Origin: Parachlamydiales bacterium | GTDB taxonomy: Bacteria > Chlamydiota > Chlamydiia > Chlamydiales > SM23-39 | Direction of reading: 5' to 3' | Length of the DNA stretch: 64,000 nt | NCBI GenBank assembly: GCA_015661075.1 | Contig: JACVQJ010000003.1 | Coordinates: forward strand, 28,623 to 92,622 | Shown here: in pieces, positions 6,935-62,651 of the stretch | Position numbering within the stretch: position 1 is the first letter of the stretch | How the letters are laid out: each line of letters starts with the position of its first letter | Program-made: the position numbers and the translations under genes | Notes under the pieces: model-generated | What the model saw: the letters and a program-made list of their open reading frames with translations, nothing else | Told to the model about the DNA's origin: nothing | The model's database searches: none

Positions 6935-7112
6935 AATCATTCTCGAGCTAAAGGCTGTAGAAAAAGTCCTTCCCGTTCATGAGGCTCAGCTTTTGTCCTA
7001 TCTCCGACTATCAAACAAACAGGTGGGTCTCTTGATCAATTTTAACGTTCCTGTTCTCAAGAAACTTTTGGAAAACGCTGAGTTTAAAAGAACTGAGACG
7101 CCGAGACGCTGA
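6906..7112 (+). pseudogene. C-terminal remnant of a GxxExxY-family protein, 3' end fused to a palindromic repeat
   Basis: ..DEIILELKAVEKVLPVHEAQLLSYLRLSNKQVGLLINFNVPVLKK.. matches the conserved C-terminal half of GxxExxY proteins. The N-terminal half, including the GxxExxY motif, is absent. From codon 57 (nt 7074) onward the residues are encoded by repeat family F. Confidence 0.6.
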
Positions 7113-7332
7113 GAAAGAAAAAAATGCACAAGAGTGAGGGATACAAGCCGCCCATGTTTGCAAATGCATGCATGCGAAGCTGCGAAACTTTTAAGAAAGA
7201 AAGGGCACTTGAAAACCTGGCGTTAATTAGCCCCCTTTCTTTCTTAAAAGTTTCGCAGCTTCGCATGAAGAGCTTCGCTCAACATAGGCGGCCTCAGCGC
7301 CTCGGCGTCTCAGTTCTTTTAAACTCAGCGTT
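7074..7332. repeat. 259-bp nested palindromic element (family F)
   Basis: Outer 40-bp inverted repeat, 7074-7113 vs 7293-7332, with 1 mismatch (aacgctgagtttaaaagaactgagacgccgag..). Inner perfect 35-bp inverted repeat, 7171-7205 vs 7233-7267 (catgcgaagctgcgaaacttttaagaaagaaaggg). One copy in the window. No flanking direct repeat seen. Confidence 0.85.
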
Positions 7333-7389
7333 ATTCTCTAATAACCACTGAAGATGTGAAGGATGTTGATTTGGGATGTTAGCCATTAT

Positions 7390-7571
7390 CTCGACTTTGT
7401 ACATTTTTAGGGCCGCCTGCCTCGCCTATTTGCCCTCTGACGTTCGACCTCTGGTCGAACTAGACGTTTATTTAATAAGGAAGGGGATAGTCAACCCCCT
7501 TCCTTATTAAATAAACGCCTCTGAGGGCAAATATTTCGAGGCCTTCGCCCCTAAAAATGTACAAAGTCGAG
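7390..7571 (+). mobile_element. family A MITE-like palindromic element, copy 1 (182 bp)
   Basis: Terminal inverted repeats ctcgactttgtacatttttaggg.. / ..cctaaaaatgtacaaagtcgag. Internal 8-bp hairpin gttcgacc-tctg-ggtcgaac and a long central hairpin. Flanked by the perfect 5-bp direct repeat attat (7385-7389 and 7572-7576). Confidence 0.9.
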
Positions 7572-13959: not shown

Positions 13960-14026
13960 GAACCTGGTCCCCTTTAATTTTCTTCATAGGGGCTGTCAGG
14001 GAATAAAGTAAAGGCAACTGTTTAGA

Positions 14027-14196
14027 GAGCCATTCCCGATGTGCCTCTTCGACGATATTCGGAATCTTTTCGACGATTTTACGCCCATTTTTCCGAAGTC
14101 CATATAACTCAAGGAGATATTGGACTTCGGAAAATGGGGTAAACTCGTTCGAAAATATCCCGAATCTCCCCGAAGAATTCACATCGGGAATGGCTC
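14027..14196 (-). mobile_element. family B MITE-like palindromic element, copy 1 (170 bp)
   Basis: Terminal inverted repeats gagccattcccgatgtg / cacatcgggaatggctc. Imperfectly palindromic interior. Flanked by the perfect 5-bp direct repeat ttaga (14022-14026 and 14197-14201). Inverted relative to copy 2. Confidence 0.9.
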
Positions 14197-14203
14197 TTAG
14201 ATA

Positions 14204-22296: not shown

Positions 22297-23292
22297 TTAA
22301 AGCGTTGGTTTCAGGATCTGAATGCAAAGCAGATGAAGATCTTTCTGCAGATCTTTGCGTTTGGTGGCAAACGAGATTTCCTTATGGAGCATCGCGGCCG
22401 TTGTCTCTATGCCGTCTTGGGCAAAATACTTTAATGTTTTCGTCAAAAGGTCGGACATTTTCTGCGGTTCTTTGAAAAAAGACGCAAAGCCGTGGTTCAT
22501 GAGAAAAACAAAGTCTCCGGCCGCTACTCGGCGCTTGCCTTTCAGTTGTTTTAGATCCCCATCTTCCACCGACCAGATATAGGGCGTGGCGCAGTTGGCC
22601 GATTGGGATGATATCATCGATCGCTCCCTGTTCAAAGTAATGCGCAGCGAGGGAAACGGCAGTTTTTCCTGGGGATGGTCTTTCGAGAGTTTGTATTGGG
22701 TTAACAGCTGATACATTCCATCAAACCCTACCTGGTTGGCTTCTGCCAGATAAATGCTCAGGAGCTCGGGGCGGTCCGAAGCGGGGAAATCGACGAGCAA
22801 ACCGCGGGTGGAGGCGGAAGGGAAAGAGATGGCTTTAACAGCGATCGCCTCGGATGAACACTCATCGATGTTTTTTTGCAGCATCAGGTGTTGCAGCAGC
22901 CGCGCGCACTCGGCCTCGCCATACATGCGCTCCCAAAGTCGCGAATTTTCCTTCAGCCGGTTGATGTTTTCAAGCAGGCACTCGCTCATGGTGTTGAGCG
23001 TATTGGCCAGCTCTTTCAGCTCTCTTGGGCCGGTTACCTGAATCGATTCGCCATAATGACCCGCGGCAATCGCCAGAGCGGAATTGTTCAGCTTTTGTAC
23101 CGGTTCGGAAATTTTTCCCGCGATGAAATACAACGAAACCGTCGCGATGATAGCCAGGAGTGCAACGCCGAGAACAGCCAGATGGGTGTGCTCGATAAAA
23201 ATCCGGCTATAGCATAAGAGGAGGGCGATCAATATGATGTCTCCGACCAATGCGGGAAGAAGAGAGAGCAGCAAACGGGTGCGGATTTTCAT
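22297..23292 (-). CDS. membrane HAMP-domain protein with degenerate PPM/SpoIIE-like (RsbU-like) C-terminal domain
   Basis: Start moved to MKIRTRLLL (23292), giving an ATGA overlap with the upstream stop. Two TM helices with a very short loop, then a HAMP-like segment (..ISEPVQKLNNSALAIAAGHYGESIQVTGPRELKELANTLNTMSECL..). The C-terminus aligns by eye to the SpoIIE/PP2C fold, but the expected metal-binding Asp positions read ..YLAEANQVGFDG.. and ..FLMNHGF... Confidence 0.6.
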   Translation of the reverse strand: MKIRTRLLLSLLPALVGDIILIALLLCYSRIFIEHTHLAVLGVALLAIIATVSLYFIAGKISEPVQKLNNSALAIAAGHYGESIQVTGPRELKELANTLNTMSECLLENINRLKENSRLWERMYGEAECARLLQHLMLQKNIDECSSEAIAVKAISFPSASTRGLLVDFPASDRPELLSIYLAEANQVGFDGMYQLLTQYKLSKDHPQEKLPFPSLRITLNRERSMISSQSANCATPYIWSVEDGDLKQLKGKRRVAAGDFVFLMNHGFASFFKEPQKMSDLLTKTLKYFAQDGIETTAAMLHKEISFATKRKDLQKDLHLLCIQILKPTL

Positions 23293-23732
23293 GGCGCTCG
23301 CTGAGCAGCTCCATTGAGACGGCATGAAAGGGGGTTGGCATAGCTTTGCAATAGAGCCACGGCCACAGAGGGGCACTCCGAAATGACAGATAACAAATGG
23401 CTGCGCGAAAGGATGAATAGCCGGACATCGGTTTTGCAGATGGCAAAATAGCTTCTGGGCTGCTCATTGAATAGAGACTCATCTCCAAAAAAGTCTCCCG
23501 AATTCAGTTCGCATACCGCGCGCATGCGCTCATCGAGGATTTGCACAGTGCCGTCGTAGATGATGTACATGCGGTTCGCCGCTTGATGCAGGGAAAACAC
23601 CTGATCTTTCTGGTCGTACTCGTCGTAGAGCAGTTTTTCGGCGATGGCCAATAGAAGATCGAGGTCGAGATCATTGAAGATCTTGACCTTTTTCAAAAAG
23701 AAAGCCTTTTCAATCAGACTAAAGTGTTTCAT
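23289..23732 (-). CDS. stand-alone cyclic-nucleotide-binding (cNMP/CAP-effector) domain protein
   Basis: 147 aa. ..FFLKKVKIFNDLDLDLLLAIA..NSGDFFGDESLFNEQPRSYFAICKTDVRLFILSRSHL.. is a typical cNMP-binding beta-roll. No HTH or other output domain. ATGA overlaps at both ends. Confidence 0.8.
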   Translation of the reverse strand: MKHFSLIEKAFFLKKVKIFNDLDLDLLLAIAEKLLYDEYDQKDQVFSLHQAANRMYIIYDGTVQILDERMRAVCELNSGDFFGDESLFNEQPRSYFAICKTDVRLFILSRSHLLSVISECPSVAVALLQSYANPLSCRLNGAAQRAP

Positions 23733-26515
23733 GTCTCTAACAGCTCATAGGCAAAGTGATGGAACGTTTCATCGGAGCGCTTGATTTGCTCGCGCAGCTC
23801 CTGGCGCCAGTTCGGCATTTGCAGCATGGCCTTTAAACGGGCCGCGACGACTTTATCGTACAAGGAACCCGAGCGATCCAGCGTGGCCAGCAAATCCGAA
23901 AGCGACAACTGGGGTAAATCTTTTTTGAAGCGCAGACAGGCCGCCAGCTTGTCTTCCAGGGGCCGATCATCGATCAGTGGAGAGATGCGTCGAAATAATC
24001 GCGGATCGCAGGTTCTTTCCAGGCTTTCGACAGCATTGGATTGAATTTTGGCATTGCGGCTATAGAGTGCGCGCGCCAGCATCTCCGGCTCTTGCAGTGA
24101 GCCTGCCGCCCCTAATAAATGGATTACGAAGTCAATCACGCTGCGAAAGCCGGTCAAAAGAGCGTTTTCCAGTAATTCAAGGTCGTAGAGCGGGTATTGT
24201 TTTTGAATCTTATGGCCAAAGTAAAAATAGAAATAGGCCCGGTCGATCTCGATTCCAATCACATCCGTCAGATTGGCCTGGAGTTGCGGCAGCGCTAACC
24301 GGCCCAGGATTTTTCCCGCCAGAATGCGGCTGCGGTCGGGAATGGACAAATCTTTGGTGAGAGACAAAAGAATGGGCACTGTTTTGAGCCCCATGGCAAT
24401 GATGATCTCTTCGGTTCGGCGCCGTTCGTTCGGACGGAAGTATACGCTAGCGGCAAGAAGGTCTTTCACGGTCGACGAATCGGCGATTTTACCGAGGGCG
24501 TCGAGGCAATAGAGGCGGAAAAAATTGTCACGCGACGATTCCAGCTCATCGATCAGGCGCGGCGCATCTCTACTGAAGTGGGGATCGGCCAGGCGCGCGA
24601 TGCAGCGCGCGGCGGAGCGCTTCACGAGAATCGCATCGTGAGATAAAAAGGGCAGCGCCTTCCCTGCGCCCTGCGGCACTTCGCCTTCGGCAAGAATGTC
24701 GAGCGCCATACTGATCTCATCGATGCGCGATGATTTCAGCATGATTTCGATCTTTTTCGTTGCGATCGCGCGATGGATGGCCGCCGTTTCGATGGGCTGG
24801 GAAACGAGAGATTTCTGCAGCGTCAATATAGCCGATCCTTGCAATAACAGATCGCTATTTTCCAGATCGTCTTCGACTTTTTCCGGATGATGCAATCCGC
24901 GCTTGGCGAGATAGAAGCTGGCCCATTTGCAAAATTCCGGCGATTCGCTTTCATTCATCCAGCTCGCGATGCTGTCCAGCACTCGGGCGTCGTTCGAAAA
25001 TGAACTGGCTTCGAACATTTTCAGCAGCTGGATTTTGCTCAGCGTGCCAAAACCGCGGCTCACTTCGAGAATCTGCGCGAGCACGGTTGCGTCGTGCAGC
25101 GACAAAAGCGATTCACAAGCCAGCAGGCGAACCTCTTCGCGGCCGCTACGGAGCGCCGCCAGAATGTCTTTGCGGGCCTCTTTCTGCTCCCTGCGACCCA
25201 TTGAGGCTAGCCAGTCCTTCAATTTTCGGTCAAAATGCAAGGCATTGTCTTTCAAATTGATCAGGATCGCTTTGGAATACAGGGCCCGGATCAAAAGAGT
25301 GATGGCGAGCGAAATGAGGGTCAGCGCCAAGCCTAGCCAGCGGCTGCCGGATTGCATCCCCAATAATAGCAATGAACTCACCAGCATTCCGATCGGCTCG
25401 AAAAAGGAGTCGTTGATGATGCGTACCTTTGACTTCAGCTGTGCTGGCACGGCATTGGACAGGAGATTGAAGCAGTTGTCTTCTATGGTAAACAGAATGC
25501 CGTCGACCGCAATGAGCCCCAAGATAGCGATAATGAGGGTATCGTATGTGACCCATTGAGAATAAACAGCCAAAAAGAAGATCGGCGTGATCAAAATGGC
25601 GTTGCAAAGGCCGATGCGCCTCACGAAGCGGCTATAGAAGAAAAATCCGACCAGGATATTGCAAGCCGAGATATAGGCGCGGCATTTGCCCAGAAATTCG
25701 GCGATCGTTCCAACCGAAATCCCGGATTCGGCCGAATTAAAAATCCGTCCAAAACTATCCATATAACTGTATTCGGAAACGGTGATCAGCAGCTGTGTGA
25801 TCAGGCTCAATGAAAGAAGATAGATGGTGAAAGGGGAGCGGCTGATGAGTTTGACGATTGAGGCAAAACCGCTGCGATCGGTTGAGAATACGCCATCCAC
25901 GGTGTCATCGTGCACAGCAGGGGTTTTGTGTGCGATGGTTCGCGCTTCGGTCAAGGCGATGAGCAATGATACTGCGGCGATAATCAATAGAGCGGGGATT
26001 CCTAGCATGTTCAGGGCGATGTTGATGAGAATGCCCGAGCAGATGTTCCCCAAAAAATATGCAGCGCTATAGAGAGAATAGACTCTTTTCGCGTCCTGCA
26101 GATCGTGGTATTGGTCGATGAATGTCCAGGAACAGGCAATCAAAACGGTAAAGAGCATCCGGGAGGCGATTTTAAAAGCGTACCAAAATATGAGCGGGGG
26201 CGAGCCGCTCACAAAAAAGGCCGATGAGGCGCAAAGAAGGGCGCCGATGCTGATGGCAATGGTCAAAATTCGATAGGGACTTGTGAATCGCAAACAATAG
26301 AGCACGATCGTTGAGACGCAAACCATTGAAAGGGAGGTTATTAAAAAAACGATCGGAAGAAATTGGGCGCCGGCTTTTTCTAGAAAAAACCCATCGGATA
26401 GAGTCTCGAGGGTTGTTATTCCAAGAGCCCAGAAAATGGCCAGACGGGCAAATCGCAATGATTTGATCCCCTCACCGGGATAAATACCAAAAACTTTTTG
26501 AAAAAGGCGTTGCAT
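23729..26515 (-). CDS. 12-TM TLC/MFS-like transporter domain fused to a ~500-aa HEAT/ARM-repeat domain
   Basis: 928 aa. The N-terminal ~420 aa are polytopic and resemble the Npt/TLC-MFS style. The remainder is helical repeats of HEAT type (..VRLLACESLLSL.., ..VKRSAARCIARLADP.., ..FRLYCLDALGKIAD.., ..IQSNAVESLERTCDP..). Confidence 0.7.
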   Translation of the reverse strand: MQRLFQKVFGIYPGEGIKSLRFARLAIFWALGITTLETLSDGFFLEKAGAQFLPIVFLITSLSMVCVSTIVLYCLRFTSPYRILTIAISIGALLCASSAFFVSGSPPLIFWYAFKIASRMLFTVLIACSWTFIDQYHDLQDAKRVYSLYSAAYFLGNICSGILINIALNMLGIPALLIIAAVSLLIALTEARTIAHKTPAVHDDTVDGVFSTDRSGFASIVKLISRSPFTIYLLSLSLITQLLITVSEYSYMDSFGRIFNSAESGISVGTIAEFLGKCRAYISACNILVGFFFYSRFVRRIGLCNAILITPIFFLAVYSQWVTYDTLIIAILGLIAVDGILFTIEDNCFNLLSNAVPAQLKSKVRIINDSFFEPIGMLVSSLLLLGMQSGSRWLGLALTLISLAITLLIRALYSKAILINLKDNALHFDRKLKDWLASMGRREQKEARKDILAALRSGREEVRLLACESLLSLHDATVLAQILEVSRGFGTLSKIQLLKMFEASSFSNDARVLDSIASWMNESESPEFCKWASFYLAKRGLHHPEKVEDDLENSDLLLQGSAILTLQKSLVSQPIETAAIHRAIATKKIEIMLKSSRIDEISMALDILAEGEVPQGAGKALPFLSHDAILVKRSAARCIARLADPHFSRDAPRLIDELESSRDNFFRLYCLDALGKIADSSTVKDLLAASVYFRPNERRRTEEIIIAMGLKTVPILLSLTKDLSIPDRSRILAGKILGRLALPQLQANLTDVIGIEIDRAYFYFYFGHKIQKQYPLYDLELLENALLTGFRSVIDFVIHLLGAAGSLQEPEMLARALYSRNAKIQSNAVESLERTCDPRLFRRISPLIDDRPLEDKLAACLRFKKDLPQLSLSDLLATLDRSGSLYDKVVAARLKAMLQMPNWRQELREQIKRSDETFHHFAYELLET

Positions 26516-26579
26516 CTCACTCGTAAAAACGGGCTGTTAGTCTTTATATTATACGATATCGAGGCATTATTTCTCTGTT

Positions 26580-26723
26580 TTGAACGCATTTCTTGCCGCA
26601 ATCCCACCCCTTCAGGGGTGGGTCTAGGCAAGATATTTTATTCGTGCGGTAAGCGGCTTTAGCCGCACCGCCTCCAAAAGCTACGTAAAGAATCTCCTCC
26701 TTTTAAGGAGGAGTTCTTCAAAA
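26580..26723 (-). repeat. family C multi-stem-loop repeat, copy 1
   Basis: As a reverse complement it matches 45750-45904 nearly base for base. It contains stems cccacccc/ggggtggg, gcggc/gccgc, cttgcc/ggcaag and ctcctcc/ggaggag. Confidence 0.85.
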
Positions 26724-26758
26724 AATCTTTTTTAGCTGGTATTGACCTATACCATTAG

Positions 26759-26854
26759 CTCGACTTTGCAACTTTTTGGACCCGAAGGCCTCGAGATATT
26801 TGTTCTCGGAGCAAATAGACGAGGCAGGCGGGTCCAAAAAGTTGCAAAGTCGAG
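26759..26854 (-). mobile_element. family A element, short variant (96 bp) lacking the central module
   Basis: ctcgactttgcaactttttggacc..ggtccaaaaagttgcaaagtcgag. The arms are homologous to the two family A arm types. Flanking 5-mers attag / tttag match at 4 of 5 positions. Confidence 0.8.
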
Positions 26855-26980
26855 TTTAGATCTCCATTTCCGAGTTTGCGTGAATGGCCTGTTTATCCTT
26901 GAGGAAATTCGGCCAAGCGGTGTAGAACTATTGATACTTAAAATTTTTTAGCGCGGCTGTTTTGCGCTCAGAGGCAAAGT

Positions 26981-27934
26981 ATGGAAAGACATCACTTGGT
27001 AATCATTGGATCAGGACCGGCAGGTTATTGCGCGGCGATCTATGCGGCGCGAGCTAACTTGAAACCAGTTCTGTTCGAAGGTTTTATGTCGGGAACCGCA
27101 GGCGGACAGCTCATGATCACCACCGAAGTGGAAAATTACCCGGGTTTTCCCGATGGGATCCTGGGACCGCAATTGATGGAAAGCTTTCGAGCGCAGGCCA
27201 AGCGTTTCGGGACTGTCGTGTTCACAGAGGATGTTGAATCGATCGATTTGTCCAAAAAGCCGTTTTTTATCAAGAGCTCGCAGAACCAGATGTTAGCCGA
27301 TGCGATCATCATTGCGACAGGGGCTACGGCGAAGCGGATGGACATCGAGGGCACTCGCGACGGAGAGTTTTGGCAAAAGGGCGTGACGGCGTGCGCCGTA
27401 TGCGATGGGGCGGCGCCGATTTTTCGCAACAAACCGCTATTCGTGATCGGCGGCGGCGACAGCGCGGTTGAAGAAGCGATTTTTTTAACCAAATATGCCA
27501 GCCGTGTTTTTCTCGTCCACCGCCGCGATCAATTGCGAGCTTCGAAAATCATGGCGGCCCGCGCTCTGAAACATCCCAAGATTGAAGTACTCTGGAATCG
27601 GACCCTGGAAAAAGTACAGGGAGATCAGATCGTACGAAAGGTCATTTTACAAAACCTGTTGACCCATGAAATGGAACAGCGAGAGGCCGGCGGTGTATTT
27701 TTTGCCATCGGACATTCGCCCAACACAGTTTTTTTGCAAGGGCAGCTGAAATTGAATGATGCGGGATACATTGTTGTGAAGAAGGGAACTACATATACGA
27801 GCAAGGCGGGAATTTTTGCTGCGGGCGATGTGCAAGATCCAGTGTATCGGCAGGCGGTTACAGCAGCCGGCTCTGGATGCATGGCTGCGCTGGATGTCGA
27901 ACGGTGGCTGAGCAAAAAAGGAATTGTGGAATGA
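26981..27934 (+). CDS. trxB: thioredoxin reductase
   Basis: FAD motif GSGPAG, redox centre CAVCDG, NADPH motif [10 protein letters not shown]. Confidence 0.95.
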
Positions 27935-28746
27935 AGATTAAGGCAATCATCCTCAGCGTTTTGTTTTTTCCGGGGCTATGCCACAGTCTTGAAGTACAGC
28001 CATGGTTTGGCGACGTTTTTGAATTTCATTTTCTAGGTAGCTATGTTTACAGCCGTTTCAATAGCGTTCAGGGCGGAGATCCTCAGTTGAAGAGTCCTTT
28101 CAACTCAAATCTGGGTTATTTGGGATTGGAATTTTGTCCAACATCTGACTGGAGTATTGATGGCGATGTGCAGGTGGCGGATACGACGGCCGTGCCATTT
28201 AATTTTCGATCGGTGGCTCTGCAGCTGCGCTATCTATGGGCGGACGACATCGTTGGTAATCCTGTGACCTTTTCCACGGGAGCCAATTTCCGCGCTACTT
28301 CTGAGTCAGCCCTGCGCGATGTAAGCTGTCCTTCTCATGCCAATGTCGATTTTGAGATGAATTTTGCTCTTGGAAAGGAATTCGATGCTTCAGAGAGCTG
28401 GCGATGGCGGCTTTGGTGTTTTGGGGCTCTGGGTCAGGCGAATCGCGGATCGCCATGGGTGCGAGCGATGGCTGCCGTTGAAACGAACATCGATGATAAG
28501 CATAAATGGGGGCTTTTGGCGATAGGCAGCAATGGCTATGGCCGCCACTCTCATGTGAATACCGAACATTTTAACGGGTATGGAAAGATCCGGCAAAAAT
28601 CGATCGATGTGGGAATCCGCTACGGCTATCGCACAGGAGTCTGGGGGACGCTGCGCGTGGAATATCAACGGCGCGTCTTGGCAAAAGCATGTCCCCAGAA
28701 TGTTAACGCATTTATCTTTAGCTATTTGTTGCCATTCTCTCTTTAG
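27931..28746 (+). CDS. secreted hypothetical protein, possibly an outer-membrane beta-barrel
   Basis: Start moved to [19 protein letters not shown] (signal peptide), giving an ATGA overlap with the trxB stop. Alternating aromatic/polar beta-strand-like pattern. Ends ..[11 protein letters not shown]. Confidence 0.55.
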
Positions 28747-29180
28747 AAATCATCGTCCGGTACTTGTGGTGGAGAGGGGAGTCGGCGTCGAACAGCTTCC
28801 GGAAGCTCGATTGTGAACTCTTTCGCTTCAAGAATTTTAGGATTTCTTATCCTCTGCGCATTGCATTTTATCCATGCAAAAGCCTCTGTTACACAAGGGA
28901 ATTCCCTGTAAGACATGGATTGAGGTAAAAGAACATAGATATTCGGGGTATTATATCCTACGAAGCATAGGCCTGTAGCTGGGCGATCGCTTGAAAACTT
29001 ATTTGTTTCAAAAATCTTGTAAGTATTTATATTCCGTTCGTTCAGTCTTATCCATATAAAAGCCTCTTCTACGCGAGAGAATTCTTTGTAAGAAACGGAT
29101 GGAGGTGTGTGAATAGACGGAAGCTCGCCAATAGAACCGTGTCTGGTACTTAGGCTGTATTCAACAAGGAAAGCGGACAC
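28743..29180 (-). CDS. small hypothetical protein built from an internal tandem duplication
   Basis: 145 aa. ..PPSVSYKEFSRVEEAFIWIRLNERNINTYKIFETNKFS.. repeats as ..LPQSMSYREFPCVTEAFAWIKCNAQRIRNPKILEAKEFT... The DNA segments starting at 28861 and 29041 align with a 180-nt period. Confidence 0.55.
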   Translation of the reverse strand: MSAFLVEYSLSTRHGSIGELPSIHTPPSVSYKEFSRVEEAFIWIRLNERNINTYKIFETNKFSSDRPATGLCFVGYNTPNIYVLLPQSMSYREFPCVTEAFAWIKCNAQRIRNPKILEAKEFTIELPEAVRRRLPSPPQVPDDDF

Positions 29181-31317: not shown

Positions 31318-31497
31318 CTCGACTTTGTACATTTTTAGGGCCGCCTGTCTCGCCTATTTGCCCCCTGACGTTCGACCTACGGTCGAACTAGGCGTTAATT
31401 TAAGAAGGAAGGGGATAGTAACCCCTTCCTTCTTAAATTAACGCCTCAGAGGGCAAATATTTCGAGGCCTTCGGCCCTAAAAATGTACAAAGTCGAG
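31318..31497 (+). mobile_element. family A MITE-like element, copy 2 (180 bp)
   Basis: Same architecture as copy 1. Lies 26 nt from the rlmH start and 15 nt from the lgt start. Flanking 5-mers taaaa / taaag match at 4 of 5 positions. Confidence 0.9.
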
Positions 31498-32804: not shown

Positions 32805-32854
32805 AGTTACCTTTAAAAAATTAAATTATGTCTTTTGGTGTGGATTTCCTCAAG

Positions 32855-33023
32855 GAGCCATTCCCGATGTGAATTCTTCGGGGAGATTCGGGATATTTTC
32901 GAACGAGTTTACCCCATTTTCCGAAGTCCAATATCTCATTGAGTTATATGGACTTTGGAAAATGGGCGTAAAATCGTCGAAAAGATTCCGAATATCGTCG
33001 AAGAGGCACATCGGGAATGGCTC
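32855..33023 (+). mobile_element. family B MITE-like element, copy 2 (169 bp)
   Basis: Same termini as copy 1, in opposite orientation. Flanked by the perfect 5-bp direct repeat tcaag (32850-32854 and 33024-33028). Confidence 0.9.
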
Positions 33024-33094
33024 TCAAGAGTTTGCTTGACCCGATAACGGGGGGCAGAGGATAATGGGCGCATAAGAATTGATAGGGGGATGGT

Positions 33095-39895: not shown

Positions 39896-40558
39896 ATGGA
39901 CATAGTCCTTTGCAAGGCAAGTAGAATATTTAATTGTAGGTTTTGTATCAAAGAAATATTGGAATTACTACAGATTGCAGACCGTCTTCTCGGCCCTGGA
40001 GGTTGTCCCTGGGACCGGGAACAAACGTTATTGACCCTGCAAAAATATCTGTTGGAAGAGACGCACGAGCTCATTGAGGCTATCGATCGGGATGATTCCG
40101 GGCAAATTGTTGAGGAGATGGGCGATGTATTGTTTTCTCTCATTTTTATAGGAAAATTGGGTGAAAAAGCCAATCGATTTACATTCAACGATGCGGTTCA
40201 GTGTGTTTGTGAAAAACTGATTCGGCGCCATCCCCATATTTTTGCAGGCGTGAGCGTGAATGGCGTCGATGACATCGTTCAGAACTGGGAAGCCATCAAG
40301 AAGAAAGAAAAAGAGCGGAAAACGATTTTTGAGGGGATCCCTCCCACATTGCCGATTTTGGCCCGGGCGCAAAAAATGATTGAAAAGCTTCAGCGCCACA
40401 AAAGTTCATTGGCACCCATCGGATCTGGCCAGAAAGTTTCTGAAGAGGAAGTGGCGAGACGTTTATGGGAGTTGCTGGGACAGGCCCAAAGTTCAGGGGT
40501 CGATGCCGAGTCAGCCTTGCGCCGTTATTGTCAGCAGATAAAAAACACCGGAGAGTGA
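39896..40558 (+). CDS. mazG: nucleoside triphosphate pyrophosphohydrolase MazG
   Basis: ..GGCPWDREQTLLTLQKYLLEETHELIEAI..EEMGDVLF..RRHPHIF... The true start may be TTG at 39959; only 34 bp separate ATG 39896 from the divergent gene. Confidence 0.85.
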   Translation: MDIVLCKASRIFNCRFCIKEILELLQIADRLLGPGGCPWDREQTLLTLQKYLLEETHELIEAIDRDDSGQIVEEMGDVLFSLIFIGKLGEKANRFTFNDAVQCVCEKLIRRHPHIFAGVSVNGVDDIVQNWEAIKKKEKERKTIFEGIPPTLPILARAQKMIEKLQRHKSSLAPIGSGQKVSEEEVARRLWELLGQAQSSGVDAESALRRYCQQIKNTGE

Positions 40559-40645
40559 TCCGCGGCAAAAACTGAATCCTTAAGGCTGCTACCTTCCGGT
40601 CCTGACCTGGTTCAGATTGCTTATCCCGCGAGTTCCCCGGTGAAA
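40548..40645 (-). ncRNA. ffs: signal recognition particle RNA (4.5S/SRP RNA)
   Basis: The minus strand reads ..cgcgggataagcaatctgaaCCAGGTCAGGACCGGAAGGTAGCAGCCttaaggattcagtttttgccgcgg... The capitalised block is almost identical to the E. coli 4.5S domain IV core (CCAGGUCAGGUCCGGAAGGAAGCAGCC) with its GGAA tetraloop. Flanking strands pair (tctgaa/ttcag, cgcgg/ccgcg). Ends are approximate, and the 3' end overlaps the mazG stop. Confidence 0.8.
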
Positions 40646-42987: not shown

Positions 42988-43167
42988 CTCGACTTTGTTC
43001 ATTTTTAGGGTCGAAGGCCTCGATGGATTTGCCCTCTGAGGCGTTCATGTAAGAAGGAAGGGGGTGACTATCCCCTTCCTTCTTACATGAACGCCTAGTT
43101 CGACCAGAGGTCGAACGTCAGAGGGCAATAGGCGAGGCAGGCGGCCCTGAAAATGTACAAAGTCGAG
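42988..43167 (-). mobile_element. family A MITE-like element, copy 3 (180 bp, inverted orientation)
   Basis: Same termini and modules as copies 1 and 2, but reverse-complemented. Lies 54 nt from the ruvB start and 21 nt from the dcd start. Flanking 5-mers agcat / aacat match at 4 of 5 positions. Confidence 0.9.
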
Positions 43168-44177: not shown

Positions 44178-44369
44178 CTTTAAGGATAGGAGTTCTTCGA
44201 CAGCTAATGGCGGGCGCTTAAAAGCGACCGATAAAATAAATAGCTCGGCTTACCCGCCCCTGAAGGGGCGGGATTGCGCTTCGAGCAAGCTGTTCAAAGG
44301 CACTTGTGATGGGAAGCTGTGCTGCTTAGAAGTGACCAGATGCCTGGAACGACAAAGAAAGAAAAGGGG
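44178..44369 (+). repeat. family C (diverged) + module D repeat, copy 3
   Basis: Collinear with 45750-45973. Module D (44301-44369) is nearly identical to 45905-45973. The C part is diverged, but its stems are preserved by paired substitutions. Confidence 0.8.
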
Positions 44370-44557
44370 ATTCCCTTCCCAGGAAGAGACGCGAATCCGT
44401 TTTTGATTAATAAAAGCGCAAAAACTCTCGAAAAGGCAAAAGGGACTGTTGGAAGAGGTCGTCGGCCAGAACGAGGCCGATCAGATCAGCTATCTCAATC
44501 GCGAAGAGTTGCTCGCCGTTTTCGAGACGATCTGGAAAGGCGTTTCTCAGCGTCTTT

Positions 44558-45616
44558 TCAAAAGCAAATGCGCTTGTTCAGATTCGGGATTTTTAGGGGT
44601 GGTGGTGGTGAGAGTTTTTTCTGAGTTAATTGGGAGGTAAGGCGTAAGGATTTGAGCGTTTTATTTAATTCGAATAACTCTTTTTTGTCAGCTTTAATTT
44701 GTGTGTTGATTATTGCATATTTTTTATAATGAAGCTCGCATGTATTTCTATTAGAGAGATTCTCAAATTCGAGAGTTTCAATTTGTTGAGCAACTGAATT
44801 ATTGCTAGCGGTGGAACTTGAAAAGCTATCAGTGAGCCCTTCTTTCTTATTGTCAGTTGGAGTGGGCATTATAGTTGTGCGTCGTTGGCTAAGATTTATG
44901 GGAAATTCGGACTTTTTAGGAGGGGTGGGGATATTATTTTTTTCTGAGTCATCTGAGCCAATAGGTGTTGATGAGATAACTGTTGGGGATTCGGGCATAT
45001 GTTTAATTGGCTTTAAATTTTCTTTGAGGCCTGTAATTCCATCAGTAATAACTATATGTTTATTTATATCACGGGTATAATTATCATAATGAGTATCGGC
45101 TATTTTTTGATTTAAGACCAGCGCTTCTTCGAGATCTGAAATTCGTTTTATAATTTCCTTCTCATTGGTAGGGAGGGAACTTCGAATGTCAATAGGGATC
45201 TCTTTAACGGCGCTCGATTCGTTAGTTGGAATATCCTTTTCAATTTTATCTACAATTTTTTTAGCAAGAGTTTCACGGAACAAATCTGATATCCGATTTT
45301 GCAAAATAAGCGATCCTATCTTCTTGGCGCTTTTTAGAATCATGCTATTGTCTGTTTTTTTGTCGGTAATTTTATAGGCAAGATCTACAATATCTTGAGT
45401 AAGATTGTCTAAGCCATTATCGTTATATATTTGGGTGTTTTTATCCCAGGTTTTTAACAAATGACTAAAAGCCACTTTTGCGAGGTTTCTGATCTCCTGA
45501 TTGATTTTTCTATCAAATAACGTTGAAAGTCGGATGCAAAAACGTTTAAAAAACCCAGGGATTGCAAAATTGCTAGAGTATGTTGTTAAACTAGTTGGGC
45601 TTAATGCAGGATTCAT
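44558..45616 (-). CDS. hypothetical protein (352 aa) in a visibly AT-rich segment; effector-like low-complexity protein
   Basis: Asn/Lys/Ile/Ser/Thr-rich sequence, a Pro-rich C-terminal region (..KLSPPPPLKIPNL..), no signal peptide and no TM. Composition contrasts with neighbouring genes. Bracketed by the C+D direct repeats. Confidence 0.6.
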   Translation of the reverse strand: MNPALSPTSLTTYSSNFAIPGFFKRFCIRLSTLFDRKINQEIRNLAKVAFSHLLKTWDKNTQIYNDNGLDNLTQDIVDLAYKITDKKTDNSMILKSAKKIGSLILQNRISDLFRETLAKKIVDKIEKDIPTNESSAVKEIPIDIRSSLPTNEKEIIKRISDLEEALVLNQKIADTHYDNYTRDINKHIVITDGITGLKENLKPIKHMPESPTVISSTPIGSDDSEKNNIPTPPKKSEFPINLSQRRTTIMPTPTDNKKEGLTDSFSSSTASNNSVAQQIETLEFENLSNRNTCELHYKKYAIINTQIKADKKELFELNKTLKSLRLTSQLTQKKLSPPPPLKIPNLNKRICF

Positions 45617-45749: not shown

Positions 45750-45973
45750 GATAGGAGTTTGAAGAACTCCTCCTAGAAAGGAGGCGATTCTTTAAGTAGC
45801 TTTTGGAGGCGGTGCGGCTAAAGCCGCATACCGCATCTCATAAAATAGCTTGCCTAGACCCACCCCTAAAGGGGTGGGATTGCGGCAAGCAGTGCGTTCA
45901 ATGGCACTTGTGATGGAAAGACGTGCTGCTTAGAAGTGACCAGATGCCTGGAACGACAAAGAAAGAAAAAGGG
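45750..45973 (+). repeat. family C + module D repeat, copy 2
   Basis: Contains stems ctcctcc/ggagg, gcggc-taaa-gccgc, gcttgcc..ggcaagc and cccacccc-taaa-ggggtggg, followed by module D cacttgtgatgg..aaagaaagaaaa. Confidence 0.85.
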
Positions 45974-45995
45974 ATAAATATTAACTTCTTTGGTA

Positions 45996-46055
45996 AGGGA
46001 CTGTAATAGAGTAGAGGAGTTAAGCGATTAACTCCTCTACTCTATTACAGTCCCT
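45996..46055. repeat. perfect 28-bp-stem hairpin with 4-nt loop
   Basis: agggactgtaatagagtagaggagttaa-gcga-ttaactcctctactctattacagtccct. There is no U-tract on either side, so it is not a standard terminator. Confidence 0.9.
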
Positions 46056-47475: not shown

Positions 47476-48689
47476 TGGTTCCGTGGCTATCATTTTTAGG
47501 CTTTACGCTTCTGGCCGTCTTCATTCAGGGGTTTTTTGCCATGTTTGAAATGGCATGCGTTTCATTTAATAAAATGAGGCTGCATTATTTCGCCAGCCAG
47601 GGAAAAAAACGCGCTATTTGGCTCAGCAAATTGATCCAACGGCCGTCCCGACTCTTTGGAACGACTCTGATCGGCATCACTGCTTCCATGCAAATCGGGT
47701 CCGAATGTGCCAGAAGATTTTATGAGTCCCTTTCGATCGATCCCGACTGGGCTCCTTTGACACAGGTTTTTCTCGTCATTATTTTTGGCGAGCTCGTTCC
47801 CATGTTTGCGGCCCGCCGCCATCCGGAACAGCTTGCGATGACTTTTTCGCCTTTGATGATATTGATCTCGCGGATTTTGAGTCCGATCATTTGGGCATTC
47901 GATATGATCGCGATGCTGATCCATCGCATCATGGGCAAATCCCGCGAAGTTCCTTCGTTTCTTTCCAGAGAAGAAGTGCAAAAGGCCTTTGAGGAAGGCG
48001 AAGAGGTGAGAGAGGAATTTAATTCGCTTGTTTCTAAGGTGTTCAGGGTGAAAAATCTGCATGCCCGCCAAACAATGACCCCGGTTCATGCCGTAAAAAT
48101 GATTGCATCCAGCGCATCTATTGATGCGGCGAGGCAGCAATTGACGGCCCATTATACACCGTTTCTTCCGGTCTATCATCAGAGCGTGCAAAATATCGTA
48201 GCGATCGTTCATTTGAGGGATTTGTTGAATGTTGATCCCAAAAAAAAGGTCTTGGATGTTTCGAAACCGCCGTGGTTTGTCACTCAGGAGGCCTCGCTCA
48301 TGCAGATCCTGGAGCAATTTCGCCGCAACAGCCAGAGTGTGGCTGTCATCCTGGATGCGGGCGGTCATGCGTGCGGCCTATTGACCATCGACCAGATCAT
48401 CGATACGATTTTTGGCCCCGAGCAGTATTCTCCTCTGGAAATAGATAAAGGCAACCTATACGTGGAGCGCACGGTGGCAGGCTCAATGACCGTCGAGCAA
48501 TTTAACCGCGATTTTCAAGCCCATCTCCCGTTTAAAAAGAAAGAGACGCTGAGCGATTTGATTGTCTCCCAACTTCATCACCCTCCCGCTAAGGGCGAGG
48601 CGATTGAGATCGGATCCTTTGAATTGACCGTTCTCGAGCCAAGTATTCGCGGTGCGAAGATGATCTCTGTGAAAACGATCGATATTTAG
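47463..48689 (+). CDS. DUF21(CNNM)-CBS-CorC_HlyC hemolysin-like membrane protein (paralogue)
   Basis: Same architecture as the upstream gene. Alternative starts at 47472 and 47475 are tightly coupled to the upstream stop. Confidence 0.85.
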   Translation: MEAMMVPWLSFLGFTLLAVFIQGFFAMFEMACVSFNKMRLHYFASQGKKRAIWLSKLIQRPSRLFGTTLIGITASMQIGSECARRFYESLSIDPDWAPLTQVFLVIIFGELVPMFAARRHPEQLAMTFSPLMILISRILSPIIWAFDMIAMLIHRIMGKSREVPSFLSREEVQKAFEEGEEVREEFNSLVSKVFRVKNLHARQTMTPVHAVKMIASSASIDAARQQLTAHYTPFLPVYHQSVQNIVAIVHLRDLLNVDPKKKVLDVSKPPWFVTQEASLMQILEQFRRNSQSVAVILDAGGHACGLLTIDQIIDTIFGPEQYSPLEIDKGNLYVERTVAGSMTVEQFNRDFQAHLPFKKKETLSDLIVSQLHHPPAKGEAIEIGSFELTVLEPSIRGAKMISVKTIDI

Positions 48690-48803
48690 GCGTCGTAAGC
48701 AAATAACTATTTCATTTTGCGGCCATTATAGAGGCCCATCTGTAAACGATCGCTCCTCGGAGATATTAGAAAATATCCCGCTCGTCATTTGCTTACGACG
48801 CCT
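48688..48803. repeat. 116-bp palindromic element between convergent genes (family E); possible bidirectional terminator
   Basis: 17-bp perfect terminal inverted repeat aggcgtcgtaagcaaat / atttgcttacgacgcct. It fills almost the whole gap between the stops at 48689 and 48809. One copy in the window. Confidence 0.7.
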
Positions 48804-50736: not shown

Positions 50737-50895
50737 CTCGACTTTGTACATTTTTAGGGCCGCCTGCCTCGCCTATTTGCCCTCTGTCGTTCGACCTCTG
50801 GTCGAACTAGGCGTTTATTTAAGAAGGAAGGGGATTAAACGCCTCAGAGGGCAAATCCATCGAGGCCTTCGGCCCTAAAAATGTACAAAGTCGAG
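50737..50895 (+). mobile_element. family A MITE-like element, copy 4 (159 bp, central stem half-deleted)
   Basis: Termini are intact. The right arm of the central hairpin is missing. Flanked by the perfect 5-bp direct repeat gttaa (50732-50736 and 50896-50900). Lies 16 nt from the PP2C start and 1 nt from the CPBP stop. Confidence 0.9.
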
Positions 50896-62415: not shown

Positions 62416-62478
62416 ATAAAATCCAGTAAAAAAATATATGCAGAAAAGTCCCCAAAGAAATGGACGACTCGAATCGAT

Positions 62479-62645
62479 GCGAAGGGCTCCACGCATTGCG
62501 TGACAGTGTTAATCCTTTCGCAATTAACACTACGGAGCTGTCTAATAATAAACTGATATGATTTCGGCGCTTATCTCCTGGACACTGCTTCCATGGCGTT
62601 GGGATGCCTCGACAGTGCTTGTTAGTAAGCGCACCTCTTCTGCGG
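62479..62645 (-). promoter_or_regulatory. candidate lysine riboswitch (L-box-like) leader of the LysP-like permease
   Basis: The minus-strand RNA gcAGAAGAGGUGCGCuuacuaacaAGCACUGUC..cagugu..uaaGCGCCGAAAuc..GUGUUAAUugcgaaaggAUUAACACUGUCACGCAaugCGUGGAGCCCUUCGC shares the order and sequence of L-box core blocks as I remember them: AGAGGUGCG, GCUGUC, GCGCCGAAG, and hairpin + ACUGUCACG + hairpin + GAGAGCC. P3 would be unusually short. Confidence 0.55.
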
Positions 62646-62651
62646 TCACTG

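Follow-up and report, generated by a model that had tools for sequence, protein, structure and literature searches.

Family C, the name used here for the repeat under study, occurs three times in the window, i.e. the whole stretch of 64,000 nucleotides (64 kb) that was analysed and in whose positions all coordinates are given. The window derives from a Parachlamydiales MAG, a genome through which the repeat has spread. Family C is a new family of an already known kind of mobile element. We interpret it, with a probability of roughly 0.85, as a PATE, i.e. a non-autonomous, gene-less derivative of IS200/IS605 transposons in which the two hairpin ends are fused. PATEs were first defined in Haloquadratum walsbyi (PMC3119063) and have also been described in Geobacillus stearothermophilus (PMC10055086). 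[quoted passage not shown]

Family C agrees with all parts of this definition. With a unit length of 115–145 nt it is too short for a transposase, and it has no ORF of its own. It is inserted on one strand at a fixed position 3' of its target, which is not duplicated. Subterminal palindromes are present at both ends (P1 at one, P3/P4 at the other) and both covary, while long inverted repeats are absent. Homology to IS605-type ends is established via the left end; at the right end, a framework is all that is held in common.

Based on this dataset, we propose a mechanism in which a left-end hairpin module (P3/P4) and a right-end hairpin (P1), joined by a short linker and supplemented by P2 in some subfamilies, would be recognised on the single-stranded top strand by a Y1 HUH TnpA encoded elsewhere. 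This TnpA would excise family C as a single-stranded circle and paste it 3' of another TTGAA ('peel and paste'). More speculatively, a TnpB encoded in trans could use transcripts that leave the right end as its guide RNAs, and TTGAA would be the TAM.

Copies in the window, folding and insertion site

A core pattern of 27 nt matches the window three times, at the three copies, against a chance expectation of 0. All three copies named in the first-pass annotation are likewise recovered by alignment and by a covariance model, which assigns 137.6 bits to 26580–26721 (minus strand), 129.4 bits to 45759–45901 (plus strand), and 63.6 bits to 44180–44297 (plus strand), where 20 model positions are deleted and part of the first hairpin is gone. 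No fourth copy is detected by this model across the 64-kb window. The boundaries originally given as 45750–45904 had to be corrected to 45759–45901, and the terminal five bases of this interval, TTCAA, are the target site and lie outside the element. The bounds of the element proper (Table 1) were set by BLAST against about 60 other copies and by empty-site comparison. Strands in Table 1 refer to the inferred top strand of the transposon (tnpB/omegaRNA sense), which is the reverse complement of the orientation read in the first-pass annotation. The two full-length window copies are 94% identical to each other, and the copy at 26585..26721 displays 98.6% identity to a copy at locus L039.

Table 1. 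Family C elements, their target sites and their structural parts in the window (LE, left end; RE, right end).
Feature	Positions	Strand	Basis or remark
Full-length family C element, B subfamily	45759..45896	-	Covariance model, 129.4 bits
Target pentanucleotide, TTCAA on window + strand = 5'-TTGAA-3' on top strand, directly 5' of the left end	45897..45901	-	Empty paralogs
P1, right-end (RE) subterminal hairpin	45761..45793	-	Helix 1 of covariation test; base GAAGAACTC/GAGATTCTT
P2, optional internal hairpin GCGG-T-GCGGC-TAAA-GCCGC-ATA-CCGC	45809..45834	-	Helices 3 and 4
Left-end (LE) module: P3 enclosing P4 (CCCACCCC-TAAA-GGGGTGGG), with invariant GGGATTGCG	45848..45890	-	Helices 5–7
First top-strand bases of the element, CGCACT; 3 or 4 pair with the linker beside P1 (P0)	45891..45896	-	Helix 2
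Second full-length copy, B subfamily; top strand = window + strand	26585..26721	+	Covariance model, 137.6 bits
Target pentanucleotide TTGAA of the second copy	26580..26584	+	Empty-site comparison
Truncated copy, subfamily E	44180..44292	-	Covariance model, 63.6 bits
Target pentanucleotide of the truncated copy (TTCAA on + strand)	44293..44297	-	Empty-site comparison

The covariance model was built from 44 representatives, after which 100 full copies were realigned. In this alignment, which is fitted to the model and hence favours structure, standard pairs make up 94% of cells, as compared to 48–53% with partners slid by 1–3 columns. Both sides vary in 28 of the 40 pairs, compensatory cells number 363 versus 16–54 in the slid controls, and none of 500 shuffles reaches any observed measure. 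The conclusion of covariation is nevertheless safe, as the slid controls fall far behind and a large variety of pair types occurs across 28 subfamilies.

Five helices covary strongly in the roughly 100 copies, which derive from metagenomes and MAGs of several phyla. P1 consists of a conserved base and a variable, covarying apical stem. In P0, the linker following P1 pairs with the bases that directly precede TTCAA (window 45796–45800 with 45891–45896), and all 3 pairs of this helix covary, in pairing registers that were read by eye. P2, which is missing in the shortest subfamilies, covaries in 8 of 8 pairs. P3 encloses P4, and the two account for helices 5–7 of the alignment. Such strong covariation in about 100 aligned copies indicates that the element functions in a folded, single-stranded form. 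For the internal loop of P3/P4, a K-turn was considered and dropped on inspection for lack of fit.

The compensatory exchanges between copies from which selection for structure had first been proposed are indeed present in the sequence, namely cccAcccc/ggggTggg versus cccGcccc/ggggCggg, gctTgcc/ggcAagc versus gctCg/cGagc, and the swap of the hairpin gcggc-taaa-gccgc for gcgctt-aa-aagcg. The proposal itself is borne out as well, the covariation being genuine and statistically strong in the larger alignment. The paired base changes stem from different element subfamilies, and we infer that master copies are under selection to keep the stems so that the transposase recognises them. When copies of a mobile element covary, this reflects selection on the master copies of subfamilies and not a function at each locus. 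For annotation, it is relevant that a repeat with several stems and clean compensatory changes may represent the ends of a transposon and not a regulatory RNA.

The third copy (44180–44297) had been described as a diverged copy with its stems kept, as if it had drifted in place. It is 96–97% identical over 115–117 nt to full-length elements at L042, L065 and L083, which makes it a truncated member of another lineage and not a product of in-place divergence. Full-length members of its subfamily occur in a related metagenome (L033, L042, L065, L082). Its first ~30 nt, comprising the outer strand and the loop of the RE hairpin, are absent, and for this reason it is probably immobile. A truncation resembling it is found at L040.

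An 80-nt direct repeat (44292–44371 and 45896–45975, 94% identical) starts at the TTCAA target of two family C copies. These two copies, both on the plus strand in the first-pass orientation, have a common left flank, GATAGGAG, in addition to the common 80-nt right flank. The similarity that runs 80 nt rightward of them is a separate flanking repeat and does not belong to family C. On the simplest reading, two different subfamilies inserted into a repeated sequence containing TTCAA, after which the E-type copy would have lost 29 nt of its RE hairpin between the short repeats GGAG-TT and GGAGA-TT. The 80-nt repeat pair brackets 44558–45616, a stretch of 40.5% GC with an orphan low-complexity ORF of 352 aa on the minus strand, for which no Pfam match was obtained.

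Among 85 distinct insertion sites, no direct repeat beyond chance is found at the element flanks. In 84 of the 85, TGAAG is preceded by a T. As the search pattern prescribes TGAA, the element itself has TTGAA at this end. On the target flank, the base following GTTCA is A in 68 of the 85 sites. As many copies sit inside other repeat families, an empty-site search was feasible, in which the two flanks of each copy were joined and uninterrupted paralogs were sought. This yielded at least 9 uninterrupted paralogs, each with one ...TTCAA... and no element. Comparison with the filled sites (...TT|GAAG...GCG|TTCAA...) gives TTGAAG...GCG as the net insert. On the top strand, the element hence lies directly 3' of 5'-TTGAA-3' and ends in ...GGAGTTCTTCAA-3', with no target duplication. 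Such duplication-free insertion on the 3' side of a fixed target is characteristic of the single-strand 'peel and paste' route of IS200/IS605 transposition; for IS608 the target is TTAC and the terminal bases are TCAA, and ISDra2 uses TTGAT as its target. Relative to replication, elements of this kind would be expected to have their top strand on the lagging-strand template. In family C, 49 of 80 copies have it on the locally G-rich strand (49:31, p = 0.057), a trend that does not reach significance.

Distribution of family C and other repeats of the window

In about 0.8 Mb of related loci, family C is represented by ~100 full and ~20 partial copies. A scan of species-representative genomes with the core hairpin pattern returned full elements in Rhabdochlamydiaceae, Chlamydiales, Verrucomicrobiae and Deltaproteobacteria MAGs and in one unclassified MAG, and the 3' half only in a Nitrospiria MAG. 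A metagenome scan, anchored on unpaired motifs only, returned 91 loci, of which ~90 hold genuine family C copies. The metagenome Ga0206225 contains more than 30 copies, including near-identical relatives of both window subfamilies, and also carries the other repeat families of the window. Full copies start with (T)TGAAGAAC in the related loci and with (T)TGAAGAACTCC in the species-representative scan, and in both sets they end with CGTTCA(A). The family is divided into many subfamilies (28 consensuses). Truncated, internally deleted, head-to-head and nested copies are common in the fetched loci, and no long elements bounded by family C ends were found there. Clustering of neighbouring genes within 3.5 kb of ~90 copies revealed no recurrent gene. 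The core-hairpin pattern was not found in viral contigs, and a literature search with family C sequence motifs gave only unrelated primers. These data document an abundant IS200/IS605-derived family in environmental chlamydiae and other uncultured phyla.

Two further sets of loci touch on this distribution. L057 6517–13612 aligns to 22313–28754 of the window at 70–74% identity with the MFS-HEAT transporter/trxB gene order kept. Its MFS-HEAT/trxB spacer of 187 nt is without the family C and family A copies of the window, and family C is found elsewhere on that contig. Loci L001, L004, L009, L011 and L012 (Alphaproteobacteria MAGs) contain the exact 27-nt sequence ACCCTCCCCT(G/A)AAGGGGAGGGATTGCG in a different, GC-rich repeat context. 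At these five loci the other family C modules and CGTTCAA are absent, and no tnpA or tnpB lies nearby. The 27-nt sequence may be distantly related to the left-end hairpin or may be a REP that arose by convergence.

The window contains several other repeats. Family A is a ~180-nt foldback repeat whose terminal inverted repeats measure ~40 nt (CTCGACTTTGTACATTTTTAGGGCCGCC...), located at 7390–7571, 31318–31497, 42988–43167 and 50737–50895, with a partial copy at 26754–26865. It looks like a conventional MITE, and is also present in Ga0206225 loci. Inverted copies of another ~180-nt repeat, 96–100% identical, lie at 14025–14201 and 32850–33025, and this repeat also occurs at L065. The block at 7062–7354 consists of nested long palindromes, of which L015 has three copies at 90–92% identity. 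A 101-nt stretch at 48686–48786 is 99% identical to L040 5824–5924 and represents another repeat in common with the Ga0206225 organism. Between a family C copy and the CNNM/CorC gene there is a perfect palindrome with 25-bp arms (45990–46055), where the Rfam matches are confined to generic miRNA hairpin models. At gathering score, Rfam finds just two RNAs in the window, a lysine riboswitch (62474–62647, minus strand, 52 bits) and a small SRP RNA (40543–40642, minus strand, 51 bits).

Homology to autonomous elements and the search for a transposase

In a blastn search against plasmids, a copy of a short (A-type) subfamily matched, with 83% over 48 nt, the end of an insertion sequence (IS) on Aeromonas and Shewanella plasmids, which is annotated as IS200/IS605 tnpA plus RNA-guided TnpB. 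Only this shorter A-type copy matched; the window copy gave no match against plasmids. The covariance model scores 36 bits at the Aeromonas IS end. A second genomic context of this IS places its boundaries at 235–2547, coinciding with the exact stop of the family C match (...GGGATTGCGCGGGCGTTTCG|TTCAA). A second IS, on pRAS3, carries a tnpB that is 73% identical to that of the first at the DNA level. Its left end reads CTTGC-TTGA-CTCGCCCC-TAAA-GGAGCGAG-ATTGC-GCAAG-CACTCCG|TTCAA and, compared to the first IS, has its own compensatory change in P4. In a seven-row alignment of the two IS ends with the LE modules of the three window copies and of two further family C copies, mean column identity amounts to 81%. 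TTGAA flanks the left end of both Aeromonas elements; in each, tnpB is read in sense on the strand on which TTGAA precedes the element, and the orientation agrees throughout. By sequence comparison, the left end of family C proves to be homologous to the left ends of these autonomous tnpA plus tnpB elements, down to the same terminal base.

At the other boundary, both ISs have a hairpin directly at the end, with the tnpB stop codon in its loop. The RE framework (G/T)TGAA..ACTC-stem-TAAA-stem-GAG.TTC is common to P1 and both ISs, and P1 agrees in architecture with the RE hairpin that L105 and L106 have at the tnpB stop codon. By the model, the right-end similarity to the Aeromonas elements is not significant (9.5 bits, E 0.22), and it is the architecture alone that is common.

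A cognate tnpA or tnpB was found neither in the 64-kb window nor in the other fetched loci, and ~350 kb of a closely related metagenome contain no tnpB. One contig with family C copies, L035, carries a divergent tnpA/tnpB pair 200 nt from a copy; its TnpA (PF01797, Y1) is 50% identical to the Aeromonas TnpA. The pair belongs to a complete-looking IS605-type element (L035 3840–5520; tnpA 153 aa, tnpB 375 aa) with a nested left-end hairpin adjoining TTTGA and an RE hairpin with the tnpB stop codon in its loop. The neighbouring family C copy is itself nested in another MITE-like repeat. The L035 element was rejected as the parent of family C, as its target is TTTGA and its ends do not align to family C above an opposite-strand control. 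Since no cognate tnpA or tnpB is present in the window or most loci, and since the L035 ends differ, we infer that the transposase of family C acts in trans. The abundance of family C would imply that a single-strand transposase is active in these lineages, now or recently. A parent element would be expected to have the bounds TTGAA|CG...GCAATCCC-hairpin and ...GGAGTTCTTCAA, with genes inside, and the covariance model together with the target motif TTGAA may be used to find the partner TnpA and TnpB.

Alternative readings and comparison with known systems

The first-pass annotation had proposed a functional RNA, for instance an sRNA or an element for processing or stability. In this rival reading, the repeat would be a host-functional structured RNA on the strand read there, and a cis-regulator would belong here as well. 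The strong covariation of the helices would fit, as would the location of two window copies upstream of, and in the same sense as, transporter genes (a 928-aa MFS-HEAT protein and CNNM/CorC). We nevertheless consider a host RNA very unlikely. The recommended comparison with Rfam was carried out for the window and eight loci, at gathering score and at E <= 10. No Rfam 15 family reached its gathering score on any copy, and the lower threshold added only chance-level hits and the sub-threshold model sot0042. The four possible orientation combinations of neighbouring genes are about equally frequent (12/14/10/13, ~50 copies), and no gene is consistently linked to family C. On the strand in question, G.U pairs are not in excess of A.C (86:105 in all copies, 23:40 in subfamily consensuses). 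No consensus promoter is seen in or beside the window copies, and their 3' end has neither a U-tract nor a consistent terminator. Mobility is indicated by copy numbers of dozens per genome, by nested insertions and truncations and by the specificity for a target site, and a related genome (L057) lacks family C at the orthologous site. The mobile unit that emerges is very probably not the host element that had been proposed. A role as guide RNA, on the other hand, would add to the transposon reading without replacing it. Transcribed from the top strand, each copy would supply an omegaRNA-like scaffold (P3/P4, P2, P0, P1) whose 3' flank guides a trans-encoded TnpB or a nuclease-dead relative, in homing and retention or in gene control. 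PATEs reportedly often encode omegaRNAs for obligatory use in trans by a TnpB (PMC10055086). The RE hairpin of family C is located where omegaRNA scaffolds end, TTGAA would be the TAM, and the whole element approximates a scaffold in size. G.U pairs are slightly more frequent on the top strand (40 vs 23, subfamily consensuses), where sot0042 also matches weakly (20.9 bits, E 0.0012 for 260 nt). This score is far below the gathering threshold of 88, however, and beyond the terminal hairpin no similarity was found to the tnpB-proximal region of the Aeromonas elements, the expected site of a scaffold. As neither a consensus promoter nor, in the window or the ~350 kb of related metagenome, a tnpB was found, we regard the guide function as a tentative and rather doubtful addition. 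If the copies are transcribed, they are candidate trans-acting guide RNAs. It would be bolder still, and in our judgement improbable, to view the dozens of copies as a dispersed guide library for a trans-encoded TnpB-family nuclease or repressor, in which case each guide would target the sequence beside its own insertion site, or to view P0 as an undescribed form of circular-junction recognition.

Two other kinds of mobile element deserve attention. The label 'REP-like' had placed family C in the right neighbourhood. Its ends match those of transposons of the IS200/IS605 family, in which the hairpins are maintained for the single-strand transposase. In a REP/REPIN-type system the element would be moved by a RAYT. 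RAYTs are Y1 HUH relatives of TnpA, REPs are multi-copy intergenic hairpins, and one L035 TnpA homolog bears the source name 'REP-associated tyrosine transposase'. Family C, however, is asymmetric, comprises 115–145 nt with two unlike end modules instead of a 20–40-nt palindrome or an inverted REP doublet, and lacks a GTAG-type 5' motif. It spans several phyla, unlike lineage-bound REPs, and no Y1 gene flanked by copies occurs in the examined loci. With ends homologous to insertion sequences that carry tnpA and tnpB, there is hardly any room for this explanation. A conventional MITE that depends on a DDE transposase, in which TTGAA...TTCAA would be inverted termini of 5 bp or TT a target duplication of 2 bp, appears equally remote. 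The termini do read in this way, the element starts with TG and ends with CA, and the two-base TT ambiguity at the junction is compatible, by sequence, with a 2-bp duplication. Yet the conserved bases outside the putative duplication are one-sided: CAA is found on one flank only, at odds with DDE enzymes, whose choice of target is symmetric. The inverted termini extend over just 5 nt, one arm of the supposed repeat is the pre-existing target, and the homology to IS605-family ends again stands against a DDE origin. Integron attC sites, self-cleaving ribozymes, IS110 bridge RNA and IS91/Helitron-type ends were also considered and dropped on inspection, as none fitted.

Among the closest known systems are the two autonomous Aeromonas ISs, on the plasmids pMCR5_045096 (NZ_CP028567.2, 176361–178673) and pRAS3-3432 (NZ_CP038105.1). 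They have in common with family C the P3/P4 hairpin, GGGATTGCG, CGTTCAA, and TTGAA 5' of the left end. In contrast to the gene-less family C of 115–145 nt, they are 2.3 kb in length, carry divergent tnpA and tnpB, and reside in Gammaproteobacteria. Their right ends finish with TTCAC, whereas family C has TTCAA, and the P0 pairing of family C is not visible in either of them.

IS608 from Helicobacter pylori and ISDra2 from Deinococcus radiodurans are the mechanistic models for IS200/IS605 transposition. Like family C, they are generally known to have as target a fixed sequence of four or five nucleotides (TTAC and TTGAT, as compared to TTGAA) and to insert on its 3' side. They also resemble it in their subterminal hairpins, strand-specific action, TCAA-like right-end bases and lack of duplication. 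There is no sequence similarity between them and family C. In family C, the RE hairpin lies within 2 nt of the end, and the LE and RE hairpins are unlike in sequence, having a TTTA-type loop and a pyrimidine-rich 5' arm in common. With regard to RNA, the omegaRNA (reRNA) of TnpB likewise finishes, shortly ahead of the boundary, with a GC-rich hairpin that has a UUNA loop. Similarly, sot0042, the sense-overlapping transcript of IS1341-type tnpB, corresponds to family C in right end, top strand and overall size. The tnpB coding part of a normal scaffold is missing from family C, and its sot0042 score falls short of the threshold as given above.

Known PATEs, finally, are the kind of element that family C most resembles. 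They carry hairpins near both ends and a targeting sequence on the 5' side, form heterogeneous subfamilies, and frequently insert into other repeats, as does family C. Family C constitutes a different sequence family, and its hosts are Parachlamydiales and uncultured bacteria (Verrucomicrobiae, Deltaproteobacteria and Nitrospiria MAGs), whereas known PATEs are from haloarchaea and Firmicutes. Furthermore, family C possesses the extra covarying helix P0, in which the left end, by its first bases, pairs with the linker next to the RE hairpin. In the circular excised form, P0 would close directly around P1 and the cleavage site.
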